This document shows, one piece after another, positions 3 through 25,075 of a DNA stretch of 28,978 bases (within the stretch, counting starts at the first letter, position 1; each line of letters opens with the position of its first letter). A program made the translations under genes and the position numbers. Under the pieces are notes generated by a model, which worked only from the letters and a program-made list of their open reading frames with translations, did not search any database and was not told the DNA's origin. The DNA is taken from UHGV virus genome UHGV-0201389; one strand, given 5' to 3'. The DNA is from a virus.

Positions 3-1859
3 AAACACATTAGACCGCCAGAAAGGAAACTACCATCACAATGGGTGGAAGATAACATTGTATTAGTCGATGGTCCTCAAGCTGGTAGTAAAGTTAAATT
101 AACCAGCTTTCAAAAAGGTATGATTGATGCTCCTTTCCTTGAGCGTAAAATCAAATATGTGTTTATGACCAGTGCGCAGATCGGAAAAACTACCATCTTG
201 AACGGTATTATCTTTAATAAGATGGCAAACGATCCGGGAAACATGATCATCGGGCAAAGTACCACAAAAGAGATGCAACAATACCTAAGCGGTAAGATCC
301 GACCAGCTATTGAAGCATGTCCGGCACTAAGCGCGGTTGTTACAGATAAAAATGACCGAAATTCGGTTAATAACAATAACCAACTCCAGCTTAAATCAAA
401 TCACTTCCTCTATATGGTTTCTTTGACCAGTCCGTCAAACTTACGAGGAAAATCAGCAAGTTACGTACTTCTTGACGAGGTTTCAGGTGCTGCTATTGAT
501 GCGGATGAAGGGAACCCCGTAGCTCTGGCTGCTAACCGCGCAACCACTTTCGGGGATGAAGCAAGAATTATCGTTTCCAGTACCCCGACCACTAAGCTGG
601 GGATCATCAATCAGGAATGGCTATCCAGCGATCAGCGTAAATTCTTCGTTCCTTGTCCTCATTGTGGGAAACACCAGGTGATCGAATGGGAAAACGTTAA
701 GTTTGAGTGGGTTAACCGTGATGGTCGCAACCTACCTGATGTAGACAGCGCCCGTTATGTTTGTCCTCACTGCCAGACTGATTGGACAGAAGGGGATCGC
801 ATTAGGGCGGTAGCTGCTGGTGAATGGAGAGCTACCCGTGAAAGTGATGTAGCCGGATTCTGGATCAGTCGTCTGTATTCACCTTTTAGCTCTATCAAAT
901 CTTGTGTTTCTGACTTCGCTCAAGCATGGCAAACCTTTGATTTGCAAAGTTTTTATAATACAGTGCTCGGACTCGTGTACGATGATCAGGAAACGGCAGT
1001 AGAAGTAAACGAACTGGAAGAACTAAAAACAGATGTTTCTGTTGAAAATATCCCAGATGACGTTATTTTCTGTTGTTCGGGAGTGGATCAGCAATTGGAC
1101 AGATGCGAATCTACTTTGTTGGGTGTAGCTAAGAACAAAATTTATATCCTCGATCACCGGATCTTTAGAGATTATAACTGTGAGAGGTACGAATCACCTG
1201 TTTGGGACCGATTAATCAACTTCCAGAAAAGCCAGTTTGTCACTGTATCCGGTCATCGTGTACCAATGCTGGCATGTTTCCTCGATACATCAAACGGTAA
1301 ATTCACACAAGCTGGCTACCGTATATGTTCCAAATGGAAAAATCTTCATGCCATTAAGGGCAGTTCATCTGGTAATGCTCCAATCATTCCGGTGAAGCCT
1401 ACCACCACGGGCGGTCATGAATTGCTTATGCTGGGCGTTAACGTTGGTAAAACTGCTGTTCGTGAGCTATTAACACGCAACTTGAAAGACAATCCTCATA
1501 TTGGCCTAGAAATATCAGAAACCGTTCCTGATGATTATCTCGATCAGCTTTTGAGTGAATCCATCAAGCGTACTGTTACTGGAACACGTTGGGTAAAAAA
1601 TCCAGGTACGACACGAAACGAGGCGCTCGACTGTCTGGTTTATAGCTACGCGGCATCCCGCTACGTTCTTTCAAAAATGTCATGGGATAAACTCATTGCA
1701 CTGAAAGAAAAGCTGAACCGCGAGAAGGAAGAACCCGTAGAAGCTCCTAAATCGCAATCTAACGAGCAAATCGAAGAAAGTAAGCCAATCACACGACCGC
1801 AACGTCAAAACATCGTGAGACGTCCAAATAGAGGCCGTGGCTGGGTAACATCGTTCTAA
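3..1859 (+). CDS. terL: Terminase large subunit, 5'-partial (frame is open to window start; listed start at 45 is GTG with no SD)
   Basis: P-loop-like SAQIGKTT and Walker B-like VLLDE near the N-terminus; Cys pairs CPHCGKH / CPHCQTDW; acidic C-terminal half; sits immediately upstream of the portal gene. No start codon or RBS between positions 3 and 45. Confidence 0.8.
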
Positions 1860-2439: not shown

Positions 2440-3963
2440 ATGTTTAATTTTTTCAAACGCAAAAAAGATATACCCGTGAATCCGGTTAAGAAAATCGGTA
2501 TTCGCCAGCACCGCAAATTATTTGTAGATCGTAAAATCGAAGAATTCACTAAGGATTTACAAAAACGCTCAATGGGTCTACAGGAAAACGACCGATTAGA
2601 GGGCAGTATGGCGCGTCAGGTTATCGCTGGCAGCATTAACAGTGCAATCAAGGGATCTGCATCACGTCTATACAATCAAGGCCGTCACCTTGCTTTGCAT
2701 ACGTCTATCGGTGCTCGTTATTGCCAGCACGTAATTGATTCCGTGGTAGGCACTGGTTTACAGCCGCGCACCTTCGTTATGAAGGGTAATGAATTGGACG
2801 TTGAGACTAACACCGCTATTGAGAATGCTTTTTGGCGTTGGGCGCGTTCTCAGAAACGATTCTCACGCAACGGAAAAGTTAACTTCCTTGAATGCTTAAA
2901 GCTAATGGAAAAAGAGCGTGTGATGGGTGGTGATGCGTTTCTGGTACTCCATGAAGATGGTAAGGATCTGCAAGTATCCATTTACGGCGCGGATTATGTT
3001 GATTGGGCGGACCAGCGCGTTTTAGACAACGGTAATACTGTTTACGCTGGCATCGAATATGAAGATGAAAAACCCGTTGCATATTGGTTTAGACGTCGTG
3101 ACATGTTCACGCAATCTTTCAGCACCGACCGTTATCGTATTCCGGCTGAACGAGTATTTCACTACTTTATCCCTAGCACAGCCGAAGCATTACGCGGCGT
3201 TACTGATTATTTGCCAGTAATTAAAGATATTGCTCACATGGATAGTTTTAGAGAAACAACGATAATTTCTAAACGTGTGGCCGCAAGTAGCATGGGCTTC
3301 ATCACAAGCGACAAAGAAAGTCAAGACTCTTTTGATGTTGGTGAAGACGAGACGGAAAACTATCAACCACCGACAATGATCACCGACTTCGAACCGGGCG
3401 CTATCCACCAATTAGAACCGGGGCAAGATATTAAAACGGTACAATCAAATCAGGGCGGTGATGATTTCGATAAATTTAATGAGGCCATGCTAACGGCAAT
3501 TGCGATGGGTCTCTCCAGCTTTAAACAAGCCCTTACGGGAGATACAAGTTCAATTAACTACTCCAGCGCGAAATTCGGTCATAATATTGAATCCGCTCGC
3601 TTTAAGACGCATCAAGATCGCTTAATTGACACGGTCATCCTTCCGTTATTTCAAGCATTTCTTGAACACGCGGTGATTAACTCTAAAATTAATGTTCGTA
3701 TGACTCAGATCGAATCTATTTTAGATGCAACGACAATTATTAGACCGCGCGTTACGTCAATTGAACCCATCAAAGATATAAACGCGGAAGTTCTCCTGAT
3801 TGACAAGGGTTTAAAATCTAAATCTGCGGTTATTATGGAAATGGGCTACGATCCTGAACAGACATTTAAGCAAATTGAATCAGAGAGACACGCACTAAAT
3901 ACATGCGTCGTGAGTGAGGGTGAGACTGAAAAAGAAAAATTGCCTGATACTCAAAATGAATAA
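2440..3963 (+). CDS. Portal protein
   Basis: 507 aa ORF directly after terL and before the capsid gene; size, acidic C-terminus and gene order typical of portals; SD AAGGA upstream. Confidence 0.75.
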   Translation: MFNFFKRKKDIPVNPVKKIGIRQHRKLFVDRKIEEFTKDLQKRSMGLQENDRLEGSMARQVIAGSINSAIKGSASRLYNQGRHLALHTSIGARYCQHVIDSVVGTGLQPRTFVMKGNELDVETNTAIENAFWRWARSQKRFSRNGKVNFLECLKLMEKERVMGGDAFLVLHEDGKDLQVSIYGADYVDWADQRVLDNGNTVYAGIEYEDEKPVAYWFRRRDMFTQSFSTDRYRIPAERVFHYFIPSTAEALRGVTDYLPVIKDIAHMDSFRETTIISKRVAASSMGFITSDKESQDSFDVGEDETENYQPPTMITDFEPGAIHQLEPGQDIKTVQSNQGGDDFDKFNEAMLTAIAMGLSSFKQALTGDTSSINYSSAKFGHNIESARFKTHQDRLIDTVILPLFQAFLEHAVINSKINVRMTQIESILDATTIIRPRVTSIEPIKDINAEVLLIDKGLKSKSAVIMEMGYDPEQTFKQIESERHALNTCVVSEGETEKEKLPDTQNE

Positions 3964-4005: not shown

Positions 4006-6066
4006 ATGACAGCAAAAAAATTACGTCGTAGCGTTGCGGTAGATGCCCCTGATTTTATCGAAGAAAAAGACGAACGAATTATTGAATTGGCTTTCTCTAG
4101 CGAGGCTCCTTATACACGTTATTACATGAATCAGGACGGCGAGCAAGTCGAATTAAAAGAGATTCTCGTACACGATGAATCAGCGGTTGATCTATCCGTT
4201 TTAAACGAAACTAACGCAAGTCTTCTGTTTAATCACAATCTGGATCTTCATATCGGCAAGATTGTTCCTGGCTCCGCTCGTATCGATGAAGATCGTGTAG
4301 GCCGTTGTCTTGTTCAATTCTCCAAAGTAGGCCAACTGGCTAATGAATGCTTTGAGAAGGTAAAGGAATCCACATTATCACAGGTTAGCGTCGGTTATAA
4401 CGTTCTTGATGGTAAAGCCGATTTTAGCAAAGGGATCTATTACGTTACTCGCTGGCAACCATATGAAGTAAGCATTGTTACGTGTGCCGCAGATCCGTTT
4501 AATGCTGGTGTTGGACGCTCTCTAAATACAGACAACGAAATGATTGTTTTGGAGGGTGAACAAGTGGAAGACGAAATTAAAGAAGAAATTAAACCGGAAG
4601 ATGAAGAAAAACGTTCCGAAGAAGATAAAGAGGAACAGGAAAATGAAGAAATTGATTCCGATTCTGGAAATAGTGTTAACAGTGGCGAAGATGTGGAAAA
4701 CCCGCAAGAAGTAACGCCAGAAGAAAAAGAAAAACGTTCCGAAGATGAACCGGAAGAAGAAATTAAACCGGAAGAAACAGAAGAACTAAATAAAGATACA
4801 GACGAGAACGACGAAACGGTAGAAGAATCCGAGACAGTCGAAGAAGAAAAGATTGAAGACGAAGAAAAACCGTTTGAACGTTCTCGCGAAGATACCGCCG
4901 AAATTCGTGCTATCGGAAAACATCTAAATATTCCAGAAGCAACGATTGAAGCTGCAATTAAAGATAGTGCCGTGACTATTGAAAATTTTAAAGAAAAAGC
5001 ACGCGCACTAAATACTACCGAATCTAAAACTTTTGTTAAAGGAAAAATTACCATGACCGATACCATTAAAACTCTGGAATCTCGTTTCGATCTTAATAAA
5101 GCTGTACGTGCAATCGCAGAGGGTAAAGCACTGACTGGCGCAGAAGCTGAATATTCTCAGGAAGAAGCACGTAAAGCCGCAGCGCGTGGTCGTGCACAGC
5201 GTTCTAACTCCGTATTCATTCCGGCGTCCGCTCTGCGTGCTAGCCAGAACATGGAATCTCTGAAACCTGTAGTTGGTGAAGAAATCCGCCATGATTGCTT
5301 CGTTGATATGATCATGGAACGCTCGATTCTGGGTAAATTGGGTGTTCGTACCATTAACGCAACTGGTCCGGTATCTCTGCCGTCTCTGACTTCCAGCAAT
5401 CTGGAAAACTTCGGTTTTGTTGCAGAAGGTCAATCCGCTGGTGAAGGTACTATCAAGTTTGCAGCACAGCCGATGACTCTTAAGACATTCAATGGAATTG
5501 TTCCTGTAACTCGTCAGGCTGCTATCACTCTGCCTAACATCGGTGCTATCGTTGGTGAGCACATGCTGAAACACAGTGCTATCGCTCTGGAAAAAGCGAT
5601 CCTGTCCAATGCTGCTAACCCTAACGCTCGTGATGGCCTGACTAAGATCCTGACCGACGCTGGCAAAGTTAAACAGATTGATTGGACCTATGCCGAGTTC
5701 CTGAAACTGGTTGCTGAACTCACAGACAAAGGTTTTAACGAATCTGATCTGGCATTTGCTACTCGTGGTGTTGTTAAAGCTGAACTGGCAGCGCAACTCA
5801 AAGCAGCTAATGTTCCGGGCTTCCTGGTAGAAGGCGATAAACTGGTTAACCGTCCGATCTATGGCTCTGGTGTAGTTGCTCAGGATACCATGCTGTTTGG
5901 TGACTTTAGCTCCCTTGTTGTTGCAGACTTCGGATCGCTGGAACTTGATTGCGACGATACCACAGGTCGCGCGGCTGGCAACCTGTACTTCCGTGTATGG
6001 GCTGATCTGGATTGGGCTGTTATGGACCATAGCGCACTGACCGTAGTTCAGAAGAAAGGCGAATGA
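4006..6066 (+). CDS. Prohead protease - acidic scaffold-like linker - major capsid protein fusion (686 aa)
   Basis: N-terminal ~180 aa resemble HK97-type prohead protease; residues ~185-290 are an extremely Glu/Asp/Lys-rich low-complexity region; C-terminal ~350 aa look like an HK97-fold major capsid protein and use strong high-expression codon bias. No separate protease or scaffold gene between portal and capsid. Ends in TGA. Confidence 0.8.
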   Translation: MTAKKLRRSVAVDAPDFIEEKDERIIELAFSSEAPYTRYYMNQDGEQVELKEILVHDESAVDLSVLNETNASLLFNHNLDLHIGKIVPGSARIDEDRVGRCLVQFSKVGQLANECFEKVKESTLSQVSVGYNVLDGKADFSKGIYYVTRWQPYEVSIVTCAADPFNAGVGRSLNTDNEMIVLEGEQVEDEIKEEIKPEDEEKRSEEDKEEQENEEIDSDSGNSVNSGEDVENPQEVTPEEKEKRSEDEPEEEIKPEETEELNKDTDENDETVEESETVEEEKIEDEEKPFERSREDTAEIRAIGKHLNIPEATIEAAIKDSAVTIENFKEKARALNTTESKTFVKGKITMTDTIKTLESRFDLNKAVRAIAEGKALTGAEAEYSQEEARKAAARGRAQRSNSVFIPASALRASQNMESLKPVVGEEIRHDCFVDMIMERSILGKLGVRTINATGPVSLPSLTSSNLENFGFVAEGQSAGEGTIKFAAQPMTLKTFNGIVPVTRQAAITLPNIGAIVGEHMLKHSAIALEKAILSNAANPNARDGLTKILTDAGKVKQIDWTYAEFLKLVAELTDKGFNESDLAFATRGVVKAELAAQLKAANVPGFLVEGDKLVNRPIYGSGVVAQDTMLFGDFSSLVVADFGSLELDCDDTTGRAAGNLYFRVWADLDWAVMDHSALTVVQKKGE

Positions 6067-6201
6067 AATAACGTAGAACCTTCTGTACCTTCCCCCGATT
6101 TGGGGGAAGAAAATCTGATTCCACCACAGGAAGAAGAATCCCAGACGGTTAAGGCGAAAGCCACAGCTAAAAAGGTGGGTCGTCCACCGAAAGCAAAATA
6201 A
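6067..6201 (+). other. In-frame stop-free extension after capsid TGA (44 codons, Pro/Glu-rich then KAKATAKKVGRPPKAK), candidate readthrough product
   Basis: Codon-by-codon reading shows no stop in the capsid frame from 6067 until TAA at 6199-6201; no internal ATG or SD; ends just before a strong terminator. Confidence 0.45.
6148..6171 (+). repeat. 24-nt motif GTTAAGGCGAAAGCCACAGCTAAA (copy 1 of 2)
   Basis: 22/24 nt identical to 11770-11793; both copies sit in the same frame near the end of the post-TGA extensions of the capsid and tail tube genes. Confidence 0.8.
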
Positions 6202-6206
6202 TAATT

Positions 6207-6236
6207 AGCCCTGCCTAACGGTGGGGCTTTTTTGTA
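6207..6236 (+). terminator. Rho-independent terminator after capsid gene
   Basis: AGCCCTGCC-taac-GGTGGGGCT stem-loop followed by TTTTTTGTAT; near-identical to the terminator at 12586-12616. Confidence 0.8.
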
Positions 6237-6264
6237 TGTAAATACTCCATAAAAGGGGGTACTA

Positions 6265-6555
6265 ATGAAATTAACTGATAGCCAGATTCGCAGGGCTTTA
6301 AAATTTGCAGAAGAATTTCAGAAAATAGACGGGACAATCATTAAAGCACATCACGAATTTTCACATGTAGATACTCCTGATGGTGGCGTTACCGAAAGTG
6401 AATATCTTATTTGTGCTCGTGGTGATTTAAAATCCGGTGATATTGTCATTATCGAAGGTGTACGTAATAAAGTTGGTTACATCAAAGATGACAGATCCGG
6501 CCTTATTGAAGCCTATATTACTGTAGTAGGGGGTAAACATGGCAAGTATGAATAA
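6265..6555 (+). CDS. Small head/neck-associated protein (96 aa), function unknown
   Basis: ORF with strong SD (AAAGGGGG) between capsid and tail genes; position suggests a head completion or head-tail joining role. Confidence 0.6.
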   Translation: MKLTDSQIRRALKFAEEFQKIDGTIIKAHHEFSHVDTPDGGVTESEYLICARGDLKSGDIVIIEGVRNKVGYIKDDRSGLIEAYITVVGGKHGKYE

Positions 6556-6970: not shown

Positions 6971-7804
6971 ATGAATATTACACATGATAACTTAGATATT
7001 TTTACTGGAAGCCATGTAGAAGTAAGTATTTCTAACCAGCTAGACAATCAGGTCGACTTTTTCGATCCTAGCTTTAGTGGTATGGAGAACATCGCAGCCT
7101 TTCCTACGCTGACAGAATCAACCGAGATCGAGACTTACGAAGAGTATGATCATGATGCTACTGGTAAGCTGGCTGGCTATCGCAAACTTGAACCGACTAC
7201 GCTCACAGTAAACCGAGTTCTTGACGACGAACATCAAGCAATGTTGATGAAAGCCGTAGAGGATAAAACACCTTTGCGCTTTAGAATGTTCTATGTCGTG
7301 AACTCTGGCTATAGTGCTGCTAACACTGGTTACTATGTCATTTATGATGCTTATGTCACTAGCCATAAAACTCGTGGCGGTGATAACAAAGCTGTAACTA
7401 TGGAATTCAAACTAGAACCAGATGGCGGGATTCTTGCAAGGGGTATTGCAACCGAAGGCCGGATCTTACGTCAGGGTGATTTTGGTCTGGGCGCTGGTGT
7501 AAATCCTTTCACCGGACCTATTGATAGTGAATCTCTGACAGGAAACCGCTTCGTAACCTACAAAGGAACGGCTAGCACTAACCCTTATGGTGCTGATACA
7601 TCGTTAATTCATCTTCAAGCTAATGAGCATGGCGCATGGCAATTAACGTGTAATACTTCCGGTGCTCCACGTTTGCGGGTACGAAATATTCAGGACAACG
7701 GAAAATCGGAATGGATTAAAGTCTATACAACAAATGAGAAGCCAACGCCAGCCGAAATTAATGCGGTTGCTAAGACTGATAGAATCGACTTCGGGGAATA
7801 CTGA
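6971..7804 (+). CDS. Structural protein of unknown function (277 aa)
   Basis: ORF with TAAGGGGTAATAATG initiation motif; ends in TGA but with only 3 open codons downstream; C-terminus has a KPTPAEINAV motif resembling the N-terminus of the next gene. Confidence 0.65.
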   Translation: MNITHDNLDIFTGSHVEVSISNQLDNQVDFFDPSFSGMENIAAFPTLTESTEIETYEEYDHDATGKLAGYRKLEPTTLTVNRVLDDEHQAMLMKAVEDKTPLRFRMFYVVNSGYSAANTGYYVIYDAYVTSHKTRGGDNKAVTMEFKLEPDGGILARGIATEGRILRQGDFGLGAGVNPFTGPIDSESLTGNRFVTYKGTASTNPYGADTSLIHLQANEHGAWQLTCNTSGAPRLRVRNIQDNGKSEWIKVYTTNEKPTPAEINAVAKTDRIDFGEY

Positions 7805-7877: not shown

Positions 7878-10800
7878 ATGCAATCAATCCAATTTAAACG
7901 CACACAGACGGCTGGTAAAAAGCCAACGCCGGAACAATTACAGGTCGGTGAAATCGCTATTCAGATGGCAGACCATGTAATTTATACCAAAGATAAAAAT
8001 AACGCAGTAGTTCAAGTAAGTGTTTCTCCTGAAAGCCATAATGCTTTAAACACGAAAGTAGACAATAACAAGAAAACTACTGATTCTACTATCGCGGCAA
8101 ATAAAACCGAAGCTGCTAACGCTCTGGCTACCGCTAAATCTGAACTGAATAACACCATTACCACGAAAGATACAGCAACCAATAAGCGCATTGATGCTAC
8201 TAACACCACTGTTAGTAACTTAACCCAGACAGTTACGGCAAATAAAACCGACGCTGACAGCAAACATACCACTTTAACTAACACTGTTGCGGCAAACAAA
8301 TCAGCTATTGAAACTACCGTAGCGAATAACAAACGAGATGCGGACAATAAAATCTCAGCTTTAACCACTACGGTTAATGACAATAACACCGCGATCAATA
8401 GCCGTGTTGATGCCACCAACACCAATGTTAGCAATCTGACCAAAACCGTTACAGCTAACAAGTCTGATGCTGATTCTAAGATCTCCAGCTTAACGAGTAC
8501 CGTTGCGGCTAACAAATCAGCCATTGAAACTACGGTAGCGAACAATAAACGCGACGCTGATACGAAGATCACCAACTTAACCAACACTGTTAATAGCAAC
8601 CACACCGCCATTAACGCGAAGGTAGACAAAAACAAGACCGATGCAGATGCAGCGATTGCAGCCGCTAACCGTCGAATTGATGGTATTGAAGGTAGTGCCG
8701 ATGCTGCTTACATCAAGAAGAATACCAATACCTATCATCATGGCTATCTGTTAAGCAAGACTGCTAACTACTTTGATGATACCGGTGCTCGTAACCTTGA
8801 TTATTTTGGTGCGTTTCGTCCGAACAATGCCGAAGGGTGGGGTAACTTAATCCTTAACATTCCTCATTCTGGCGGTAAAGCACACGGTCGCGGCTTTGAG
8901 TTCCATTATGGGTCTAGCTCATCTCAGGTTAAAACCTATGGCTTTGATGCTAACGGTGCTAAAAGATTCAGCTATCGCATGTATCACGAAGGTGATAAAC
9001 CTACACCATCGGAATTGAACGTTTACAGCAAACAAGAAGTTGATCGTATGTTTGTTAAAAACGTTAAAATGTCGGTTCCTTCTGGTGATGCAACTCGTGG
9101 ATATTTTAAGATTGCAACCGCAATGATTCCGCAGCAAGGCAGAATGGCATTTATTCGCATCTATGGTGGTAACGGTTATAACGTTAATTCTTACGATCAA
9201 GTTGACTTTCTTGAAATTGTTATCCGTAGCGGCAACGGAAACCCTAAAGGAGTTAGTATTGCTGCATATCGTCGAAATGCTAAAAATATTCATCAAGTAT
9301 TTGCGGTTAACACTTCCGGTGATAACTACGATATCTACGTTAACTACGGTCGTTATACTGATAACGTTATTGTCGAATATGGTAAAACTAACGATGTTAC
9401 ACTGACGGTACATGACGTTCCTGAAATAACTCTCGTTAAGCCGTCCACTGGTGTTACTGATGGTAAAGTAATTACCATGTTTAACACAGAGAACAAAGCC
9501 GGAACTATTCGTTTTGATGATAATACACAGGGAACTTACGATATTATCAGTTTGTGTAATGATACTGGTGATGGTAAAAAATATCTTCGTCAGTTCCGTA
9601 GTAAATCAGGTCATACTATTTGGCATGAAACTGTTCAGGGTAGCGTGTACCGCCTAGCTACTGGCACTACTGACTCAAACGAAGTTCTTAAAATTACCGA
9701 CCGCACGCTGCAAACTGGTCGTGCTGTTCTTGATGGTGGTAATATTCGTTTAGAACGCCAGACAGGGAATAGTAACCTTGTTGAATATTGGGATCGTCGT
9801 AACGGTGCTAACGTTCGTCAATCATGGTTTGGTTTTGGTAATGCCGACACTAACGCATTCCAGATCTATAGTGATGCTGGTAAAAACAACTTTGCGTTAG
9901 AACAAAGCGGTCAGATCTCTCTTAATGTTGGTGCAACAAAAATTGTCCATACCAACGGGCAATATATTTCAACTAACGCTGATGCATATCGTATGATTTA
10001 CGGTAATTACGGTGCATTCTGGCGAAATGATGGTGTTAAAACCTATCTTCTGTCTACCGCCGAAAATGATAAATGGGGTAGCTGGACTGGAAACCGTCCA
10101 TTCATTTATGAATTTAGTTCCGGTAACGTTAATTTAGGTGGTGATTCCAATAAATCCGCATTGACCTTAGAAGGTGCAAGCAAAGCCGCTCGATTTGGTG
10201 GTCATGTTTATACTGGCGGTAACTTACATAATACTGGACAGCATATAACGATGGAAGCCGGACTTGCTGGACAATCCCGCGATTTTATTCGCTTTAACCA
10301 TTGGGGTGATAGCAGTAACGGTCGTGATAACGTCCTGTATGTGGAAGATAGCAAAGGACGTCATTTCAGCACCGAGCGTAATATGGCTACTGGTGGATTG
10401 AAAGCAAACTTCTTAGGAGACTTTGAAGTTGGTGGTAAATTGACATGGGGTAAAGGTACAGCACAATCCTCGTTTAACTGTCGTGTTTGGGGTAATGCTG
10501 ATCGTAAACAGGTTTTAGAGTGGGCTGATGAAAGCGGTTGGCATTTCTATAGCCAGCGTGCAGGTGGTCCAGGAACTACAGCGATTCAGTTTAGTGTAAA
10601 TGGACAAATCAACGCACAAAACTTGAACGTTTCTGGTAAGGTTACTACCCCGCAAATTAGCGCATTTGGTGTAAACGTTGCTAATGGATTAGGTGGCAAC
10701 TCAATTGTTTTGGGTGATAGTGATACTGGCTTTAAGCAAAACGGCGACGGTATTTTAGATGTATATGCTAACAATGTGGCAGTAATGCGTTTTACTTCCG

Positions 10801-11156
10801 GTGCAATCACCGCAAACAAAGCAGTAAACGTAACTGGTCGAGTTACACCAACTGATTACGGTAACTTTGACGGTCGTTATATCAAAAAGACGAAAGGTTG
10901 TACTAAAATCTGGTCCGGTACTCTCCCTGGTAATACCCAGACCGGAGGTTTACCACAAGATCTCCGCTTCCGTAATGTGTGGATTCTTGACGCCGCAGGA
11001 TTTAACCATTTTATCCGTTTTGCCAATGACGGGAACTATTACCTGGCTGGTAACGGTGGATGGATTAAAATCCAACTTCACTCTAGCGGTAAAATCTTTA
11101 AGAACATTCAAGATTCTAACTTCGTTCCGCGTGAAATCTGGGTAGAAAACGAATAA
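7878..11156 (+). CDS. Tail fibre protein (1092 aa) with conserved fibre N-terminal motif and internal tandem repeats
   Basis: N-terminus KRTQTAGKKPTPEQLQVGEIA resembles the attachment motif seen at the start of many phage tail fibres; ~72-aa Thr/Asn/Ala-rich tandem repeats; Gly/Asn/Tyr-rich C-terminal half. Confidence 0.8.
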   Translation: MQSIQFKRTQTAGKKPTPEQLQVGEIAIQMADHVIYTKDKNNAVVQVSVSPESHNALNTKVDNNKKTTDSTIAANKTEAANALATAKSELNNTITTKDTATNKRIDATNTTVSNLTQTVTANKTDADSKHTTLTNTVAANKSAIETTVANNKRDADNKISALTTTVNDNNTAINSRVDATNTNVSNLTKTVTANKSDADSKISSLTSTVAANKSAIETTVANNKRDADTKITNLTNTVNSNHTAINAKVDKNKTDADAAIAAANRRIDGIEGSADAAYIKKNTNTYHHGYLLSKTANYFDDTGARNLDYFGAFRPNNAEGWGNLILNIPHSGGKAHGRGFEFHYGSSSSQVKTYGFDANGAKRFSYRMYHEGDKPTPSELNVYSKQEVDRMFVKNVKMSVPSGDATRGYFKIATAMIPQQGRMAFIRIYGGNGYNVNSYDQVDFLEIVIRSGNGNPKGVSIAAYRRNAKNIHQVFAVNTSGDNYDIYVNYGRYTDNVIVEYGKTNDVTLTVHDVPEITLVKPSTGVTDGKVITMFNTENKAGTIRFDDNTQGTYDIISLCNDTGDGKKYLRQFRSKSGHTIWHETVQGSVYRLATGTTDSNEVLKITDRTLQTGRAVLDGGNIRLERQTGNSNLVEYWDRRNGANVRQSWFGFGNADTNAFQIYSDAGKNNFALEQSGQISLNVGATKIVHTNGQYISTNADAYRMIYGNYGAFWRNDGVKTYLLSTAENDKWGSWTGNRPFIYEFSSGNVNLGGDSNKSALTLEGASKAARFGGHVYTGGNLHNTGQHITMEAGLAGQSRDFIRFNHWGDSSNGRDNVLYVEDSKGRHFSTERNMATGGLKANFLGDFEVGGKLTWGKGTAQSSFNCRVWGNADRKQVLEWADESGWHFYSQRAGGPGTTAIQFSVNGQINAQNLNVSGKVTTPQISAFGVNVANGLGGNSIVLGDSDTGFKQNGDGILDVYANNVAVMRFTSGAITANKAVNVTGRVTPTDYGNFDGRYIKKTKGCTKIWSGTLPGNTQTGGLPQDLRFRNVWILDAAGFNHFIRFANDGNYYLAGNGGWIKIQLHSSGKIFKNIQDSNFVPREIWVENE
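8187..8618 (+). repeat. Two tandem ~216-nt (72-aa) repeat units inside the tail fibre gene, with a degenerate partial copy upstream
   Basis: RIDATNTTVSNLTQTVTANKTDADSK...AANKSAIETTVANNKRDAD recurs as RVDATNTNVSNLTKTVTANKSDADSK...AANKSAIETTVANNKRDAD; nucleotide copies differ mostly at synonymous positions. Confidence 0.8.
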
Positions 11157-11229: not shown

Positions 11230-11706
11230 ATGTCTCAACAATTCAAAGATATTTTTACTGGTGGTCTGGTAAGTCTGTTCTATCACGCCGATACCACTAA
11301 CACCGCTCTCGATCATGAAAGCTATGAAGAAATTAAAGAGTGTGCTGGTTTCCCTGAAACTGGTATCGAGCGCGGTACTGTAGAAGTTAAATCCTTCTCT
11401 TCTCAGTATAACCGCAAGCTGGTAGGTAAACTGAACGTTCCTGATCTGACTCTGACCGTTAATTATATTCCCGGGGATACCGTGCATGAGCGTCTTATTA
11501 AGGCTGCCGAAGATGGTACCCGTATTCAGATTAAGATTGAATACTATGTTGACGCAGCAAAACAGACTGGTATTCGCACCGCTTTCAACGGCTTTATTTC
11601 TAAAGTTGCTATGCAGGGCGGCGATGAAGAAGTGGTAACTAAAGAATTTACCTTTGCTGTTGATGGTGCTCCGCTGAAACAGGAAATCTTCAATACTGCC
11701 GCTTGA
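11230..11706 (+). CDS. Major tail tube protein (158 aa)
   Basis: TAAGGGGTAATTATATG initiation motif, strong high-expression codon bias, sits directly upstream of the chaperone pair and tape measure gene. Ends in TGA. Confidence 0.75.
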   Translation: MSQQFKDIFTGGLVSLFYHADTTNTALDHESYEEIKECAGFPETGIERGTVEVKSFSSQYNRKLVGKLNVPDLTLTVNYIPGDTVHERLIKAAEDGTRIQIKIEYYVDAAKQTGIRTAFNGFISKVAMQGGDEEVVTKEFTFAVDGAPLKQEIFNTAA

Positions 11707-11814
11707 ACTGTCGAAGAACAACCACAGCCGATTCCTGATGAACCTACGGTGATCCCAGAAGTTGAGGTTGTTATGGTGAAAGCCACAGCTAAACGAAGCC
11801 GCAAGGCAAAATAA
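11707..11814 (+). other. In-frame stop-free extension after tail tube TGA (35 codons, Pro/Glu-rich then VKATAKRSRKAK), candidate readthrough product or reinitiated micro-ORF
   Basis: No stop in the tail tube frame from 11707 until TAA at 11812-11814; contains ATG at 11773 preceded by GAGG; immediately followed by a strong terminator. Confidence 0.45.
11770..11793 (+). repeat. 24-nt motif GTTATGGTGAAAGCCACAGCTAAA (copy 2 of 2)
   Basis: 22/24 identity with 6148-6171 in the same reading-frame context. Confidence 0.8.
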
Positions 11815-11818
11815 TTTT

Positions 11819-11848
11819 AAGCCATCCGAAAGGGTGGCTTTTTTATTT
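11819..11848 (+). terminator. Rho-independent terminator after tail tube gene
   Basis: GCCATCC-gaaa-GGGTGGC stem with GNRA loop followed by TTTTTTATTT. Confidence 0.8.
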
Positions 11849-11889
11849 CTAATAAATACATCGTAATCACTTTTATGAGGACTCCAAGA

Positions 11890-12198
11890 ATGAATATCAA
11901 CGATTTACTGAAAGCTCTTTCCCCGAAACGTGAAGCAATGGAAATCAACGGCTTCAAATTTTATGCTCGCCCTATGAGCGTAAAGGAATTTAACGAGCAT
12001 ATTCAGAATAACAACAAAGAAGACCGCGACGAGCGTACTATTTTGCGCTGTATCGAAGATGAAAGCGGTAATCCTGTTTTCACTAACGTTAAGCAGGTTA
12101 AAGCCCTTTACACTACCGTTAAAGCTCAATTGATTGGTCTGGTGGCACTGGCTTCTATGATGCCGGAACCGAGTAAGGTAGAAGAATCGGTAAAGTAA
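11890..12198 (+). CDS. Tail assembly chaperone (gpG-like position); alternative start at 11875
   Basis: Small acidic ORF between tail tube and tape measure genes; ATG at 11890 is preceded by GAGGA, whereas the longer start at 11875 has no SD. Confidence 0.6.
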   Translation: MNINDLLKALSPKREAMEINGFKFYARPMSVKEFNEHIQNNNKEDRDERTILRCIEDESGNPVFTNVKQVKALYTTVKAQLIGLVALASMMPEPSKVEESVK

Positions 12199-12227: not shown

Positions 12228-12575
12228 ATGATGCGCAGGGGATTAAGTAAAGATGAAATGGATAATATGCCAGTTCCATTATTTTGGTCGCTGCATATTT
12301 TCGACACCTACTTAGAACCACAATCCCCCGTATTTCAAGACATGCAAAATGCAATGATGCAATATTCCCTTTATATGACTTCTCAGGGAATGACCAAAGA
12401 AATGGCTAAGAAAATCAAACCTAGCCAATTCCAGTTAATCAAAGAAGAGAAAATCTTCAAGACTAAAGAAGAACTGGAAGAAATCGAGCGTAAGCGCGAA
12501 GAAGAACGCAAAGCTGCAATGTTGAGCATGTTCGATCCGGCGTTAGTCAATAAGTTAAGGGCGACCGCTGAATAA
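12228..12575 (+). CDS. Second tail assembly chaperone-like protein (gpT-like position, 115 aa)
   Basis: ORF in the -1 frame relative to the preceding chaperone, directly upstream of the tape measure gene; Glu/Lys-rich C-terminus; no obvious SD of its own. Confidence 0.55.
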   Translation: MMRRGLSKDEMDNMPVPLFWSLHIFDTYLEPQSPVFQDMQNAMMQYSLYMTSQGMTKEMAKKIKPSQFQLIKEEKIFKTKEELEEIERKREEERKAAMLSMFDPALVNKLRATAE

Positions 12576-12585
12576 TTGAATTATA

Positions 12586-12616
12586 AGCCCTGCCTTTATC
12601 GGTGGGGCTTTTTTGT
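12586..12616 (+). terminator. Rho-independent terminator before the tape measure gene
   Basis: AGCCCTGCC-tttatc-GGTGGGGCT stem-loop followed by TTTTTTGTAT; paralogous to 6207-6236. Confidence 0.8.
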
Positions 12617-22636: not shown

Positions 22637-22701
22637 CTGGCGCAAATTGACGATAGCGCCCGTGTCGCGCAGAGTACGAGAAATCAGAATTGAAAGTTGT
22701 T

Positions 22702-22857
22702 ATGGCGGCAGATGATGAGATTTTGCCACTTGACACAAAGATCGCTTATTATCAAATGGTAATGGATTTTGCTGGTCGTGCACTGGATATTGTTAAATCT
22801 CGTGGGTTTGCGATCAAGAATGCTATAGAATTGCGTATGTTGGAATCCGGTCGATAA
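22702..22857 (+). CDS. Small hypothetical protein (51 aa), uncertain
   Basis: Sub-60-aa ORF translated manually; weak RBS; lies between two terminators. Confidence 0.3.
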   Translation: MAADDEILPLDTKIAYYQMVMDFAGRALDIVKSRGFAIKNAIELRMLESGR

Positions 22858-22877
22858 ATATATGCAGGAGGAATTTT

Positions 22878-22964
22878 ATGAGTGAATGTATTTGTAGTGT
22901 ATGCAAACAGCCAGTAGAATTGGCGTTTGTGATTAAAGTAAACGACCATGTTGTTCACCCTTAA
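22878..22964 (+). CDS. Cys-containing micro-protein (28 aa, MSECICSVCKQPVELAFVIKVNDHVVHP), uncertain
   Basis: Consensus SD AGGAGG 7 nt upstream of the ATG; CxCxxC motif; directly upstream of a bidirectional terminator. Confidence 0.35.
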   Translation: MSECICSVCKQPVELAFVIKVNDHVVHP

Positions 22965-22979
22965 AATAACTAATTATCA

Positions 22980-23012
22980 AAAAGCCCCAACCGAAAGGAA
23001 GGGGCTTAATTT
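22980..23012. terminator. Bidirectional terminator at the strand switch
   Basis: AAGCCCC...GGGGCTT stem with internal CC-gaaa-GG, T runs on both strands; abuts the helicase stop codon. Confidence 0.75.
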
Positions 23013-24506
23013 TTATGCGAGCATTATACGTTTTTGAGTCCAGTCGAATTTATCGGATATATAACACTTTATTCTTTCAAGCGCATGACTAACAGCATAA
23101 TTCTTACGGGTAACTTTTCCATTCTTACCCACAATGCAAAGGTCGTCTATCAAATCCCATACTACCGCAATTGCTTTACTACCATGTTTCCTAAGAGCAC
23201 GTCCTATTGATTGCCGGACAATGGTTGATTCTTTAACCGGATGACCAAAGATGACATGGTGTAGATTCTTAATCGAAACACCAGTAGAGAAAACACCATA
23301 GGAGGCAACTACAATCAATCCTTTCTCATTTTCAGCCATTTTCTTTAAGGCATCGCGTTCGGCGGTGGTAATCTCACTGGAAACGTAATAAACCTTATCG
23401 TAAACGCGCTGTAATGCATTATAAAGCATTTTTCCATGCTTAGAGTACCGGAACATCAAAAATACGTTTTCTTGCTTTCTAGCGAGTTTTAAGGCCAATT
23501 CACAAGCCAGTTTATTCCTTGCTTTGTGACCATTGATGAATTTAATCTCTTCCTGATAATCTTTACCCCGCATTGCTTTACATTCTTCATCCTTGTACTT
23601 GAGGAAGAGAGCATTAATCTTAAGCTGGGTAACTTGTCCGTCATCCATCAATTGTTTTATTGCTACTATCTTCTGAATATCACCAAACAACCCGACATAT
23701 TGCATTAAATGGCATTTTGATTCTTTCGGGGAACCAGTCATACCGATTTTGAACTGGCAGTGATTCATTCCGTTGATGATGTTGGTGATATTCTTTGCAC
23801 TGGCACGATGTGATTCATCAACTATCAACATTCCATATTGTCGGAACCATTCAGGAGGCATCTTGCAAGCTGATTGCCATGTACTGACAGTGATTAACCT
23901 GTCTCCCGGATGTTTCCCGCTACCACTCATCATTGTATGGATTGCTTCATGAGGGAATAGCCTATAATCGACAAAATCATCCCTCATTTGAACCACCAGC
24001 GATGTAGTCGGGACAATGATTAGAATCTTTCCGGTGTAGTTCTCCAGATACCAACGAGACAGCATACAAGCAATCAATGACTTACCCGCACTGGTAGGAA
24101 GAACCAGCATTCTACGGCGATTATGGATACCCTGAAATACTGCCTCCCTTTGATACCAGTAAGGATTGATTTTATTGCTACCGGAATACACTTCTAAAGA
24201 GTCAATCCATGAATCAATCTGTTCTTTGGTTACATCTTCCTTCTCAAGCAATCTGGGGTCTACCCATACGCTATAGCCCATGTTTTTAGCGAAGATACCC
24301 AATGTTTTCAATAATCCGATTGGCAGGGTATTTTCATGCGTAAACAGTCTTATCTTTCCATCCCAGCCGGAATATTTGTAGCGGGGGCTAAATCTAGCCC
24401 CTTCAACCTCAAACGAGAAATAATCTCTTAATTCCATCCCAATGGAAGGAGAGCATTCAACCTTAACGAAACTGTAATCTTGAAAATGAATGTTAATATC
24501 TTGCAT
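23013..24506 (-). CDS. uvsW: UvsW-type SF2 DNA helicase (start at ATG 24506; the listed ORF extends to GTG 24515)
   Basis: Walker A LPTSAGKS, DExH-type motif II IVDESH, and an N-terminal domain (HFQDYSFVKVEC...LRDYFSF) characteristic of T4 UvsW-like helicases; ATG overlaps the stop of the upstream gene (TAATG). Confidence 0.85.
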   Translation of the reverse strand: MQDINIHFQDYSFVKVECSPSIGMELRDYFSFEVEGARFSPRYKYSGWDGKIRLFTHENTLPIGLLKTLGIFAKNMGYSVWVDPRLLEKEDVTKEQIDSWIDSLEVYSGSNKINPYWYQREAVFQGIHNRRRMLVLPTSAGKSLIACMLSRWYLENYTGKILIIVPTTSLVVQMRDDFVDYRLFPHEAIHTMMSGSGKHPGDRLITVSTWQSACKMPPEWFRQYGMLIVDESHRASAKNITNIINGMNHCQFKIGMTGSPKESKCHLMQYVGLFGDIQKIVAIKQLMDDGQVTQLKINALFLKYKDEECKAMRGKDYQEEIKFINGHKARNKLACELALKLARKQENVFLMFRYSKHGKMLYNALQRVYDKVYYVSSEITTAERDALKKMAENEKGLIVVASYGVFSTGVSIKNLHHVIFGHPVKESTIVRQSIGRALRKHGSKAIAVVWDLIDDLCIVGKNGKVTRKNYAVSHALERIKCYISDKFDWTQKRIMLA

Positions 24507-25075
24507 TAGTTCCACTCCACACTTGCAATATTCTTTATATTGTTTAGTGATTTATTGCAGTAGTGGAATGTTTCAGTTTTGCCGTATTCAATCCCGCCTA
24601 TACCCACATCCAACATTCTCTTTATTGCTCGCTCAGTGGCTAGCGCATGTTTCATTGATGGCATTTCACGAGCATAGACAATATCAAAGTTATGACCGGG
24701 ATTGCGTAAGCCCAGATTAACCCTACGTTTGATAATCGATTTTGTTACACCAAATTTACCAATATCGCCGGATTGCATCACATAGAGATATGGTACACCC
24801 GCTTTATATTGAAAATAATCACTCTTGAAACATACACAGCGTTTGCCTTCATTAAGCAGGTTAGTAGCTGATTTGTCGGCTCTATCACCGCAGCGAGTAC
24901 ATGTAAGAGCAATTCTCGTGTGAAGCCCTTTAAACTCACCCAGAAAGCCATGAAAGACTAACGGTAAGTCATTATCTTTGATGTGAGTAAGAATGCGTTG
25001 TTCTAATGCTGGTGGAGTTACAGCACGGGATGATTTAGGAGTAAAAACAATATCTTTAGCCATTACTGGAATCAT
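24506..25075 (-). CDS. Zn-ribbon + T5orf172/GIY-YIG-like domain protein (189 aa)
   Basis: CTRCGD...CVC zinc-ribbon-like Cys cluster followed by YLYVMQ...KFGVTKS...R...GKTETF, matching the T5orf172 (GIY-YIG-like) pattern; SD GTGAGG upstream; coupled to the helicase gene. Confidence 0.65.
   Translation of the reverse strand: MIPVMAKDIVFTPKSSRAVTPPALEQRILTHIKDNDLPLVFHGFLGEFKGLHTRIALTCTRCGDRADKSATNLLNEGKRCVCFKSDYFQYKAGVPYLYVMQSGDIGKFGVTKSIIKRRVNLGLRNPGHNFDIVYAREMPSMKHALATERAIKRMLDVGIGGIEYGKTETFHYCNKSLNNIKNIASVEWN

Follow-up and report, generated by a model that had tools for sequence, protein, structure and literature searches.

Does the major capsid gene of a siphovirus-type Escherichia coli prophage end at its stop codon, or do some ribosomes pass this codon and add a second, longer form of the protein? 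This question is raised by the virus genome UHGV-0201389, a stretch of 28,978 nucleotides (hereafter the window) which, according to its list of open reading frames (ORFs) and to Pfam and PHROG matches, contains the structural half of such a prophage. The capsid gene stops with TGA in the context GAA-TGA-A, and the same frame then stays open for 44 codons until a TAA just before a terminator; the coordinates and the sequence of this arrangement, which had been described in a first-pass annotation of the DNA, were confirmed. The same annotation had proposed that programmed UGA readthrough extends a part of the capsid subunits, and that the arrangement is mirrored on the tail tube. This idea is supported by the identity of the stop, the open frame, insertions and deletions (indels) that come in triplets, tails that are always basic, and the tails of related proteins. 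It appears likely, from this comparison of sequences, that the capsid and the tail tube gene are both two-product genes that employ programmed UGA readthrough at their stops.

The extension of the capsid gene (6067-6198) consists of 44 sense codons in frame 0 and reads NNVEPSVPSPDLGEENLIPPQEEESQTVKAKATAKKVGRPPKAK. Its linker contains seven acidic residues (D + E), five prolines and neither lysine nor arginine, with an isoelectric point (pI) of ~4.1, and its tail contains seven basic residues (K + R) and no acidic one (pI ~11.4). The capsid extension is a block polyampholyte. An in-frame ATG was sought within the extension and is absent, and neither a start codon nor a Shine-Dalgarno sequence is kept across alleles, in agreement with the earlier statement that the extension has no ATG or ribosome binding site of its own. 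The preference of most window genes for TAA, which had been noticed as well, was found again: of 25 plausible genes 21 end in TAA, four in TGA and none in TAG, and the capsid and tail tube genes are two of the four that end in TGA. The parallel architecture announced for the tail tube gene is real. There, TGA-A is followed by 35 open codons that encode a linker and a basic tail (TVEEQPQPIPDEPTVIPEVEVVMVKATAKRSRKAK), and by a terminator; 15 identical nucleotides (AAAGCCACAGCTAAA) are common to the capsid and the tube extension.

Taken on its own, the window barely exceeds what would be expected by chance. Open runs of at least 44 codons account for ~5-6% of the inter-stop intervals in the window and for 10% of composition-matched shuffles, and runs of at least 35 codons for 10-16%. 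As this window-only significance is weak (5-16% chance), the case for the extensions rests on their relatives, and the decisive evidence is the comparison with these.

This comparison covered 29 distinct capsid and 13 distinct tail-tube extensions from E. coli prophages, IMG/VR contigs and one Providencia prophage, with the capsid gene ends being collected by protein homology alone. TGA followed by A, a leaky stop context, is found at both sites in the window and ends every E. coli-type capsid allele selected by homology, the last sense codon before it varying between GAA, GAT, GAC and GAG. After it, the E. coli-type capsid genes have 27-45 open codons with a basic C-terminus, and then a strong stop and a terminator. 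The stops that close the capsid extensions are TAATAA or TGATAA, with the exception of Providencia (TAG). A look at related prophages, which the first-pass annotation had recommended, revealed a conserved open frame: all 42 extension alleles are free of in-frame stops, and frames +1 and +2 hold 1-7 stops each in all tabulated alleles (12 capsid, 7 tail-tube). When the nucleotide sequences were aligned without constraint, the length of each of the 11 gap blocks was divisible by three (capsid: 48, 42, 27, 15, 3, 3, 3 and 3 nt; tube: 6, 9 and 3 nt), and it is through the blocks of 27, 42 and 48 nt that the capsid linker varies in length. The basic tail exists in the versions KKVGRPPKAK, KRGRKPKE, KKQRKTKE, KKERKTKAK, KRRKSK, KRSRKAKD and KRGRKAKN, which differ strongly in nucleotide sequence and are Lys/Arg-rich without exception. 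The GRP motif, which had been regarded as a feature of this architecture, did not withstand the comparison. It occurs in one class of tail alleles only and is not conserved, its core being missing, for example, from the KKQRKTKE, KRSRKAK and KRRKSK alleles. What the comparison shows is a frame 3′ of the UGA that is selected to stay open and a stop that is selected as UGA-A.

The same extension is borne by two types of capsid body which share 41% protein identity. The mosaic junction between them is the capsid stop codon (window 6060-6066 compared with loci L006 and L007), and from there on both types carry the extension and the downstream genes at ~85-97% nucleotide identity. As the similarity resumes at the stop, the extension acts as a module of its own, whichever capsid body precedes it. 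The Providencia prophage, with its diverged capsid gene, displays TGA-A and 25 open codons (TNEELPEEEPLPVATEKSTKRRKSK).

For the tail tube gene an unbiased list of 63 distinct gene ends was available, in which TGA-A was present in 16 of 16 ends with an extension and TAA in 47 of 47 ends without one; all of the 16 extended genes are of the window type. Their extensions have 35-41 codons. An alternative tail-tube allele (~60% identical) has its TAA directly before the terminator and no extension (L012 13490-13960; the same allele also in L031, L044, L047, L055, L062, L082 and L093). The prophages with this allele keep the TGA-A extension on the capsid gene, and the two extensions are thus separable.

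Comparable tails are also reached in other ways. Several tube proteins have a tail fused natively, namely ASGLRK in Salmonella, AASARK in Providencia, YHMNVIPEAVAAKEK in Edwardsiella and THLNLVKEK in Proteus, and that of the Edwardsiella tube protein (VIPEAVAAKEK) is similar to VVIPEVEEVTAKATAK of the E. coli extension. Many capsid relatives possess native basic ends (AEAKSKA, AEAKAGK, ETRKAK, KAALKASA), as does the Salmonella capsid (VEASKAK). In seven further lineages (Edwardsiella, Proteus, the phage DCP80 record and four from IMG/VR) the zero frame of the capsid gene stops and the -1 frame is open across this stop, with a linker and a basic tail that ends at the terminator (e.g., VIPTGREEVSVKSGRKPKTDN, VISQAVGSEVSVKKAKKAKAE and DGSLTDTGAQAAPVRKPRALKVTK). 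All seven have an A_AAR lysine motif 2-4 codons 5′ of the capsid stop; L039 contains the canonical heptamer A_AAA_AAG in the correct frame, L138 a run of eight A, and the others A_AAR only. In Edwardsiella and Proteus a stem can be read that begins at the stop codon, 6 nt after the A_AAR motif. These seven loci are candidate -1 frameshifts in capsid genes. The tail chaperone pair of the window (11875-12198 and 12228-12575) shows the G/GT arrangement, with GUA_AAG_UAA ending the first gene and the -1 frame (T) being open from 12177, so that it overlaps this sequence (12177-12198). As the motif occurs both in the -1 frame relatives and in the chaperone pair, it is plausible that the family uses A_AAR for -1 frameshifting. 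In the window, both extensions lie in frame, and the -1 frame is found only in distant relatives. A short basic C-terminal tail is thus a trait of this family at the level of the protein, which may be reached by direct fusion, in the -1 frame or by UGA readthrough.

According to the proposed mechanism, most ribosomes would terminate at the UGA-A of either gene and a minority would insert an amino acid, most likely by means of the near-cognate host Trp-tRNA(Trp) outcompeting release factor 2 (RF2). The latter ribosomes would continue for 44 (capsid) or 35 (tube) codons to the strong TAA just before the terminator. They would produce capsid and tube subunits that are longer by a tail of ~4-5 kDa, probably disordered, with an acidic, proline-rich linker and a Lys/Arg-rich tip. 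The predicted stop-spanning tryptic peptides are GE-X-NNVEPSVPSPDLGEENLIPPQEEESQTVK for the extended capsid and QEIFNTAA-X-TVEEQPQPIPDEPTVIPEVEVVMVK for the extended tube protein. Engelberg-Kulka is said to have reported in 1981 that a 3′ A favours readthrough of UGA by tRNA-Trp in E. coli. Neither the window, nor four related loci, nor a complete prophage of 37.6 kb encodes a suppressor tRNA, and a search of positions 5950-6300 and 11600-11900 yielded no match to a selenocysteine insertion sequence (SECIS) or any other Rfam family at E-values of up to 10, which implies decoding by the host. UGA is the leakiest stop in E. coli, where its readthrough amounts to 10^-3 to 10^-2 and is set by the competition between Trp-tRNA(Trp) and RF2 (PMC10570021). 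For the A1 minor coat protein of phage Qbeta, readthrough of UGA occurs at ~1 in 15 (PMC8067240). If the particle is assumed, based on genome size and tape-measure length, to have a T=7 head of ~415 subunits and ~180 tube subunits, readthrough of 1-5% would result, by way of illustration, in about 4-20 extended subunits in each head and 2-9 in each tail. The inserted amino acid, the efficiency, the surface location and adhesive role of the tail and the role of the RNA as a stimulator are points which we infer.

A predicted RNA helix begins exactly 10 nt 3′ of the UGA in all three classes of extension alleles (e.g., window 6077-6150 and L009 6978-7009) and may stimulate readthrough. The fold z-score of positions 6055-6204 is -4.1, one of two values (-3.5 and -4.1) that mark the predicted structures as stable. 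In the window, an outer helix AACC/GGUU (6077-6080 with 6147-6150) encloses an invariant 8-bp hairpin (6089-6096/6102-6109) and a small hairpin (6119-6122/6129-6132). The pairs are invariant in the long-linker alleles, to which the window belongs, and hence this class offers no test of covariation. The short-linker capsid alleles form an 11-bp hairpin (AAUUGCCGGAA-GAAA-UUCCGGUAGUU). In the alignment of seven such alleles, with three predicted helices, four pairs exhibit compensatory double changes, two of them in the 11-bp hairpin. The tail-tube alleles possess a long-range helix, AACUUC/GAAGUU in one family and AACAAC/GUUGUU in the other, which is broken in one recombinant allele. The tetraloop hairpin further downstream reads GGA-GAAA-UCC in Providencia and in L011, a compensatory change that alters two amino acids. 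The residues altered by compensatory changes are L to Q with E to V, and A to E with A to S. As some of these changes alter amino acids, selection acts on the RNA in addition to the frame. The hairpin at 6089-6109 was also considered as the key element and was rejected, as it is missing in the short-linker alleles, which have a different hairpin, and as the tube extension has only the long-range helix.

By analogy with viral systems the helix may raise the level of readthrough, or it could serve to stabilise the mRNA at its 3′ end instead. In a rival explanation, the region would be an untranslated, structured 3′ region which stabilises the message, or aids the terminator, of the two late genes with the highest expression, and the open frame would be incidental. 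The stable predicted structures, the compensatory changes at the cost of amino acids, the weak contrast in substitution pattern between the frames of the capsid extension (see below) and the closure of the region at a terminator all fit this idea. However, it leaves unexplained why all gap blocks are multiples of three, why frame 0 is free of stops in 42 alleles with the other frames closed wherever they were checked, and why a weak TGA-A is invariant on genes that would be expected to prefer TAA. Nor does it account for tails that are always basic and yet stem from unrelated nucleotide sequences, or for the homologous tails natively fused in relatives. We regard an untranslated role as unlikely.

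Still less likely appears an explanation in which translation of the region matters and the peptide does not, with ribosomes near the terminator modulating termination or mRNA decay and thereby tuning the downstream genes. The stop of the extension always adjoins the terminator, with the TAA 2-8 nt before the stem, and the distance from the last stop to the T-run is 22-27 nt in recoded relatives versus 30-39 nt (57 nt at one locus) in natively tailed ones. This difference in spacing is, however, small (~8-10 nt), and a few percent of the ribosomes could affect a few percent of the transcripts only. The acidic-then-basic composition and the natively fused basic tails would also remain unexplained. 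The coexistence of directly fused and tail-less relatives might alternatively suggest a decaying relic, that is, an ancestral fused tail cut by a nonsense mutation, with the downstream part not yet degraded. For this, two genes would both have to acquire the same TGA-A, and a synonymous divergence of ~0.2 and at least 11 indel blocks would have to accumulate without a single frameshift or stop. As Providencia has the same layout in addition, the relic is close to refuted, and we give it a very small probability. Even smaller is that of a separate small peptide made by re-initiation or from a non-AUG start inside the extension: some alleles do have an in-frame TTG or GTG, but no start codon or Shine-Dalgarno sequence is conserved, TTG is changed to TCG in several alleles, the extension shares the frame of the gene before it in both the capsid and the tube gene, and the tail of relatives is directly fused or lies in a -1 frame that overlaps the capsid stop. 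Equally remote is another type of UGA recoding, SECIS-directed selenocysteine or a ribosomal hop over the stop, for which the hairpins 3′ of the UGA in capsid alleles could be quoted, but these differ between allele classes, the tail-tube extension has no local hairpin, the Rfam search described above was negative, and matched take-off and landing codons are not conserved.

Several observations weigh against UGA readthrough itself. In frame 0, the ratio of nonsynonymous to synonymous polymorphism (pN/pS) amounts to 0.69 in the capsid extension and to 0.47 in the tube extension, compared with 0.76-1.25 in the other frames, and for the capsid extension it lies barely under that of its other frames (0.76 and 0.78). 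The constraint at the level of amino acids is weak, and selection on RNA structure could explain a part of the nucleotide conservation. Most alleles come from one recombining clade of E. coli prophages and are therefore not independent. The Mangrovibacter prophage and many other relatives are tail-less, with the capsid gene running straight into the next gene, and the E. coli tail-tube allele class with TAA and terminator likewise indicates that the extension is dispensable in some relatives. In wild E. coli, basal readthrough at UGA-A may fall well short of 1%, and the extension is absent from the annotations of the Prokaryotic Genome Annotation Pipeline (PGAP) in every case. The pN/pS pattern would fit a disordered peptide that is constrained in its composition and not in its exact sequence. 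As the ratio is weakly informative as a test of the frame, weight was placed on the conservation of the frame and on the indels.

If the extended proteins are made by readthrough, their tail would probably be displayed on the outside, on a few subunits per head and per tail, in analogy with what other HK97-fold capsid and lambda-like tube proteins carry at their C-terminus. The add-ons of T7 10B and lambda gpV point outward. That the same module is present on two capsid bodies with 41% identity and on the tube protein, that the short-linker capsid allele begins (NNEELPEE...) much as the tube extension does (TNEELPEPEP...), and that known add-ons of both folds face outward suggests a flexible appendage displayed on the particle, and not a fitted structural clasp. 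It might adhere weakly, by electrostatic attraction, to anionic surfaces (the cell envelope, for instance, or other polymers), a function in which our confidence is low. A role as AT-hook was rejected, as Pfam AT_hook (PF02178) reached only 13.4 bits, compared with a cut-off of 17.4, and this for the KKVGRPPKAK allele only. In the first-pass annotation the role of the extension had been likened to that of frameshift-added Ig-like domains. No Ig-like or FN3 domain was found in the extension; this sub-threshold AT_hook match was the sole Pfam match at an E-value of 10, and the extension is in character a low-complexity Pro/Glu/Lys sequence of 27-45 residues.

The positions of all features are compiled in Table 1. 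The capsid ORF unites two Pfam domains within a single reading frame, Peptidase_S78 (residues 59-162, E=7.7e-11) and Phage_capsid (429-682, E=1.7e-13), and the region between the S78 protease and the HK97-type capsid domain is very acidic and scaffold-like. It matches the major head protein of PHROG 617, and one relative has a solved structure (8gta_A). The tail tube protein corresponds to the major tail protein of PHROG 158 (E=1.2e-20), a lambda-like tube profile; its score against Pfam TTP_11 (28.0 bits) is marginally below the cut-off of 28.4.

Table 1. Features of the window and of related loci with a tail in the -1 frame (positions refer to the window unless a locus, L, is named).
Feature	Position	Strand	Basis
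Large terminase, gpA-type	45-1859		
Portal, lambda-family	2440-3963		
Prohead protease - acidic scaffold - HK97-type major capsid protein fusion, 686 aa, TGA end	4006..6066	+	Pfam, PHROG 617, ORF list
Proposed recoding site, UGA + 3′ A (GAA-TGA, then A6067)	6064..6067	+	sequence
Capsid extension, part 1: 28-codon Pro/Glu-rich acidic linker	6067..6150	+	
Predicted RNA structure	6077..6150	+	fold z-score, RNAalifold consensus on 20 alleles
Capsid extension, part 2: 16-codon Lys/Ala-rich basic tail KAKATAKKVGRPPKAK	6151..6198	+	
GGC-GAAA-GCC tetraloop hairpin inside shared AKATA motif	6153..6162	+	
Tandem strong stops TAA TAA closing the capsid extension	6199..6204	+	
Intrinsic terminator: 9-bp G+C-rich stem (6207-6228) + T-run	6207..6234	+	
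Head-completion genes	6971-7804 lies among them		
Long tail fibre gene, T-even-like	7878-11156		
Tail tube protein gene, lambda-like, 158 aa, TGA end	11230..11706	+	Pfam Phage_TTP_11/12, PHROG 158
Second proposed recoding site, UGA + 3′ A (GCT TGA, then A)	11704..11707	+	
35-codon in-frame tube extension: Pro/Glu linker + basic tail KATAKRSRKAK	11707..11811	+	
TAA stop of tube extension (11812-11814) + intrinsic terminator, stem 11819-11840	11812..11846	+	
Tail chaperone gene pair, tape-measure gene, tail-tip genes	chaperone pair: 11875-12198 and 12228-12575		
Candidate -1 frame locus, Edwardsiella	L017 3775-3851		
Candidate -1 frame locus, Proteus	L021 3558-3640		
Candidate -1 frame locus, DCP80	L001 7775-7881		
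Candidate -1 frame locus (approximate)	L030 9900-9995		
Candidate -1 frame locus (approximate)	L039 4907-5000		
Candidate -1 frame locus (approximate)	L040 4960-5030		
Candidate -1 frame locus (approximate)	L138 4890-4945		

The protein encoded at 6971-7804, among the head-completion genes, has an N-terminal half that resembles a tail tube protein (PHROG 158, residues 10-154; ~30% identity to the tube protein) and an additional C-terminal part; its gene ends in TGA-T, which is followed by three open codons only. Near-identical terminators (AGCCCTGCC...GGTGGGGCTTTTTT) are located at 6207-6234 and 12585-12616 of the window and around 16150 of L002. They follow the capsid extension, the chaperone genes and, in relatives, the tail-tube extension, which suggests a repeated terminator cassette. 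The window prophage is of the siphovirus type combined with T-even-like parts. Its fibre gene (7878-11156) includes a Gp34 trimerisation domain and shares ~78% nucleotide identity with long tail fibre genes of T4-like phages, the helicase gene region (22662-24515) shares ~75% identity with T4-like phages, and relatives of the prophage encode a gp38-type adhesin or an S74 peptidase (L009 12882-13388 among the loci cited).

Among 5426 complete E. coli genomes, 54 contain a prophage of the window type, which also occurs on many IMG/VR contigs; the family is apparently uncharacterised. In E. coli 14EC007 (NZ_CP024131.1 2954219-2991802; L176 2220-39803) the prophage has 37.6 kb and splits ycdX; its recombinase is of the serine type, and very few of its early genes can be recognised. 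A megablast search for close isolated phage relatives returned none, and the best protein match is that to the phage DCP80 record (37% identity). This record (PQ671644.1, L001) comprises 141 kb and is classed as a T-even-like Gaprivervirus, and its left end holds a lambda-like terminase, a portal, a protease-capsid fusion and a tube module. The assembly might be chimeric, or the genome itself unusual. A scan of genome contigs added one locus, that of Mangrovibacter, which served only as a tail-less outgroup. Protein P0001 (L016 41-637, ENA contig k141_243218), a "fusion" of 198 residues in which the tail tube TGA is called as Trp, was considered as a sense-codon variant and rejected, as the DNA of the contig has TGA and the gene caller had applied genetic code 4. 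Database proteins with an apparent sense codon at such stops consequently need to be checked at the level of DNA. Annotation pipelines miss the extended products entirely, apart from this metagenome caller, which switched to code 4.

With its E. coli host, two short cassettes and a natural series of alleles, the system is tractable and well suited to study what determines the level of readthrough, and the natural alleles could reveal whether a downstream RNA structure raises readthrough in bacteria. If the tail is an adhesin-like tether, both sites would also be natural display sites of minimal size on head and tail. We know of no established bacterial readthrough stimulator of this kind besides selenocysteine insertion. 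The further-reaching idea that the extension is an interchangeable recoding module on the two most abundant virion proteins, with the helix of the E. coli lineage as a true cis-acting stimulator of readthrough, seems rather doubtful as a whole; if true, the helix would be the first element in bacteria, selenocysteine insertion aside, to stimulate UGA readthrough in cis. Virions would then also record the state of the cell that produced them in the number of tails they bear, as UGA readthrough in E. coli varies with physiology and with the levels of RF2 and tRNA-Trp. Stimulators of readthrough in eukaryotic viruses, such as the pseudoknot of murine leukaemia virus and extended stem-loops, likewise consist of a structure ~8-10 nt 3′ of the leaky stop (for the latter: Firth et al., 2011, as cited in PMC5009743). 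They act, however, on eukaryotic ribosomes, whereas the role proposed here for E. coli is hypothetical and its covariation stems from few events.

Among known systems with recoded minor structural proteins, the A1 protein of Qbeta (Leviviricetes) comes closest with regard to the stop, as it is made in the same host from a leaky UGA that ends a coat gene. There, tRNA-Trp reads the UGA at a low fixed frequency and a minority of the coat subunits in the virion is extended (PMC8067240). Qbeta differs in being a single-stranded RNA phage with an unrelated coat fold and a folded extension of ~200 residues that is needed for infectivity. In the present case, two structural genes of a tailed double-stranded DNA phage would be concerned, the extension is a low-complexity linker of 27-45 residues with its basic tip, and readthrough is inferred from the sequence. 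With regard to the proteins concerned, the closest analogy is found in the Listeria phages A118, A500 and PSA, in which the capsid and the major tail protein both have recoded longer forms (Atkins et al., 2016; PMC5009743). As would be the case in the window, both major proteins of one siphovirus are extended near the stop, but the Listeria phages use -1 or +1 frameshifting, their extensions are longer and both products were shown experimentally, whereas those described here are predicted. Minor subunits with a recoded surface add-on are also found for 10A/10B of T7 and T3, gp17.1/gp17.1* of SPP1 and Lactobacillus phage A2, and in the form of frameshift-added Ig-like domains (PMC5009743; PMC6316719). 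The T7 extension is, like that of the window, not an Ig-like domain. All of these phages employ frameshifting, unlike the in-frame, short and charged peptide without Ig-like or FN3 domain in the window. The frameshift in the G/GT chaperone genes of lambda has its counterpart in the gene pair and the GUA_AAG_UAA sequence of the window, and the capsid ends of relatives share A_AAR; however, the G/GT products are absent from virions, whereas the extensions of capsid and tube would form part of the virion.

The literature searches found no report that a tailed phage uses readthrough in its capsid or tail genes. Minor forms of tailed-phage proteins are known to arise by frameshifting, and the textbook case of in-frame readthrough is that of the single-stranded RNA phage Qbeta. 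A conserved UGA-A on a pair of genes would add a mode of recoding to the structural genes of double-stranded DNA phages. An exchange of modes has a precedent in retroviruses, which produce Gag-Pol either by frameshifting or by in-frame readthrough (PMC5009743), and in the family studied here readthrough, frameshifting and direct fusion would be evolutionarily interchangeable routes to the same appendage. Recoded minor forms of capsid and tail proteins by frameshifting, and UGA readthrough of a coat gene in Qbeta, are thus both known, and what would be new is the use of in-frame UGA readthrough for this purpose in a tailed phage, which the comparison with relatives strongly supports.

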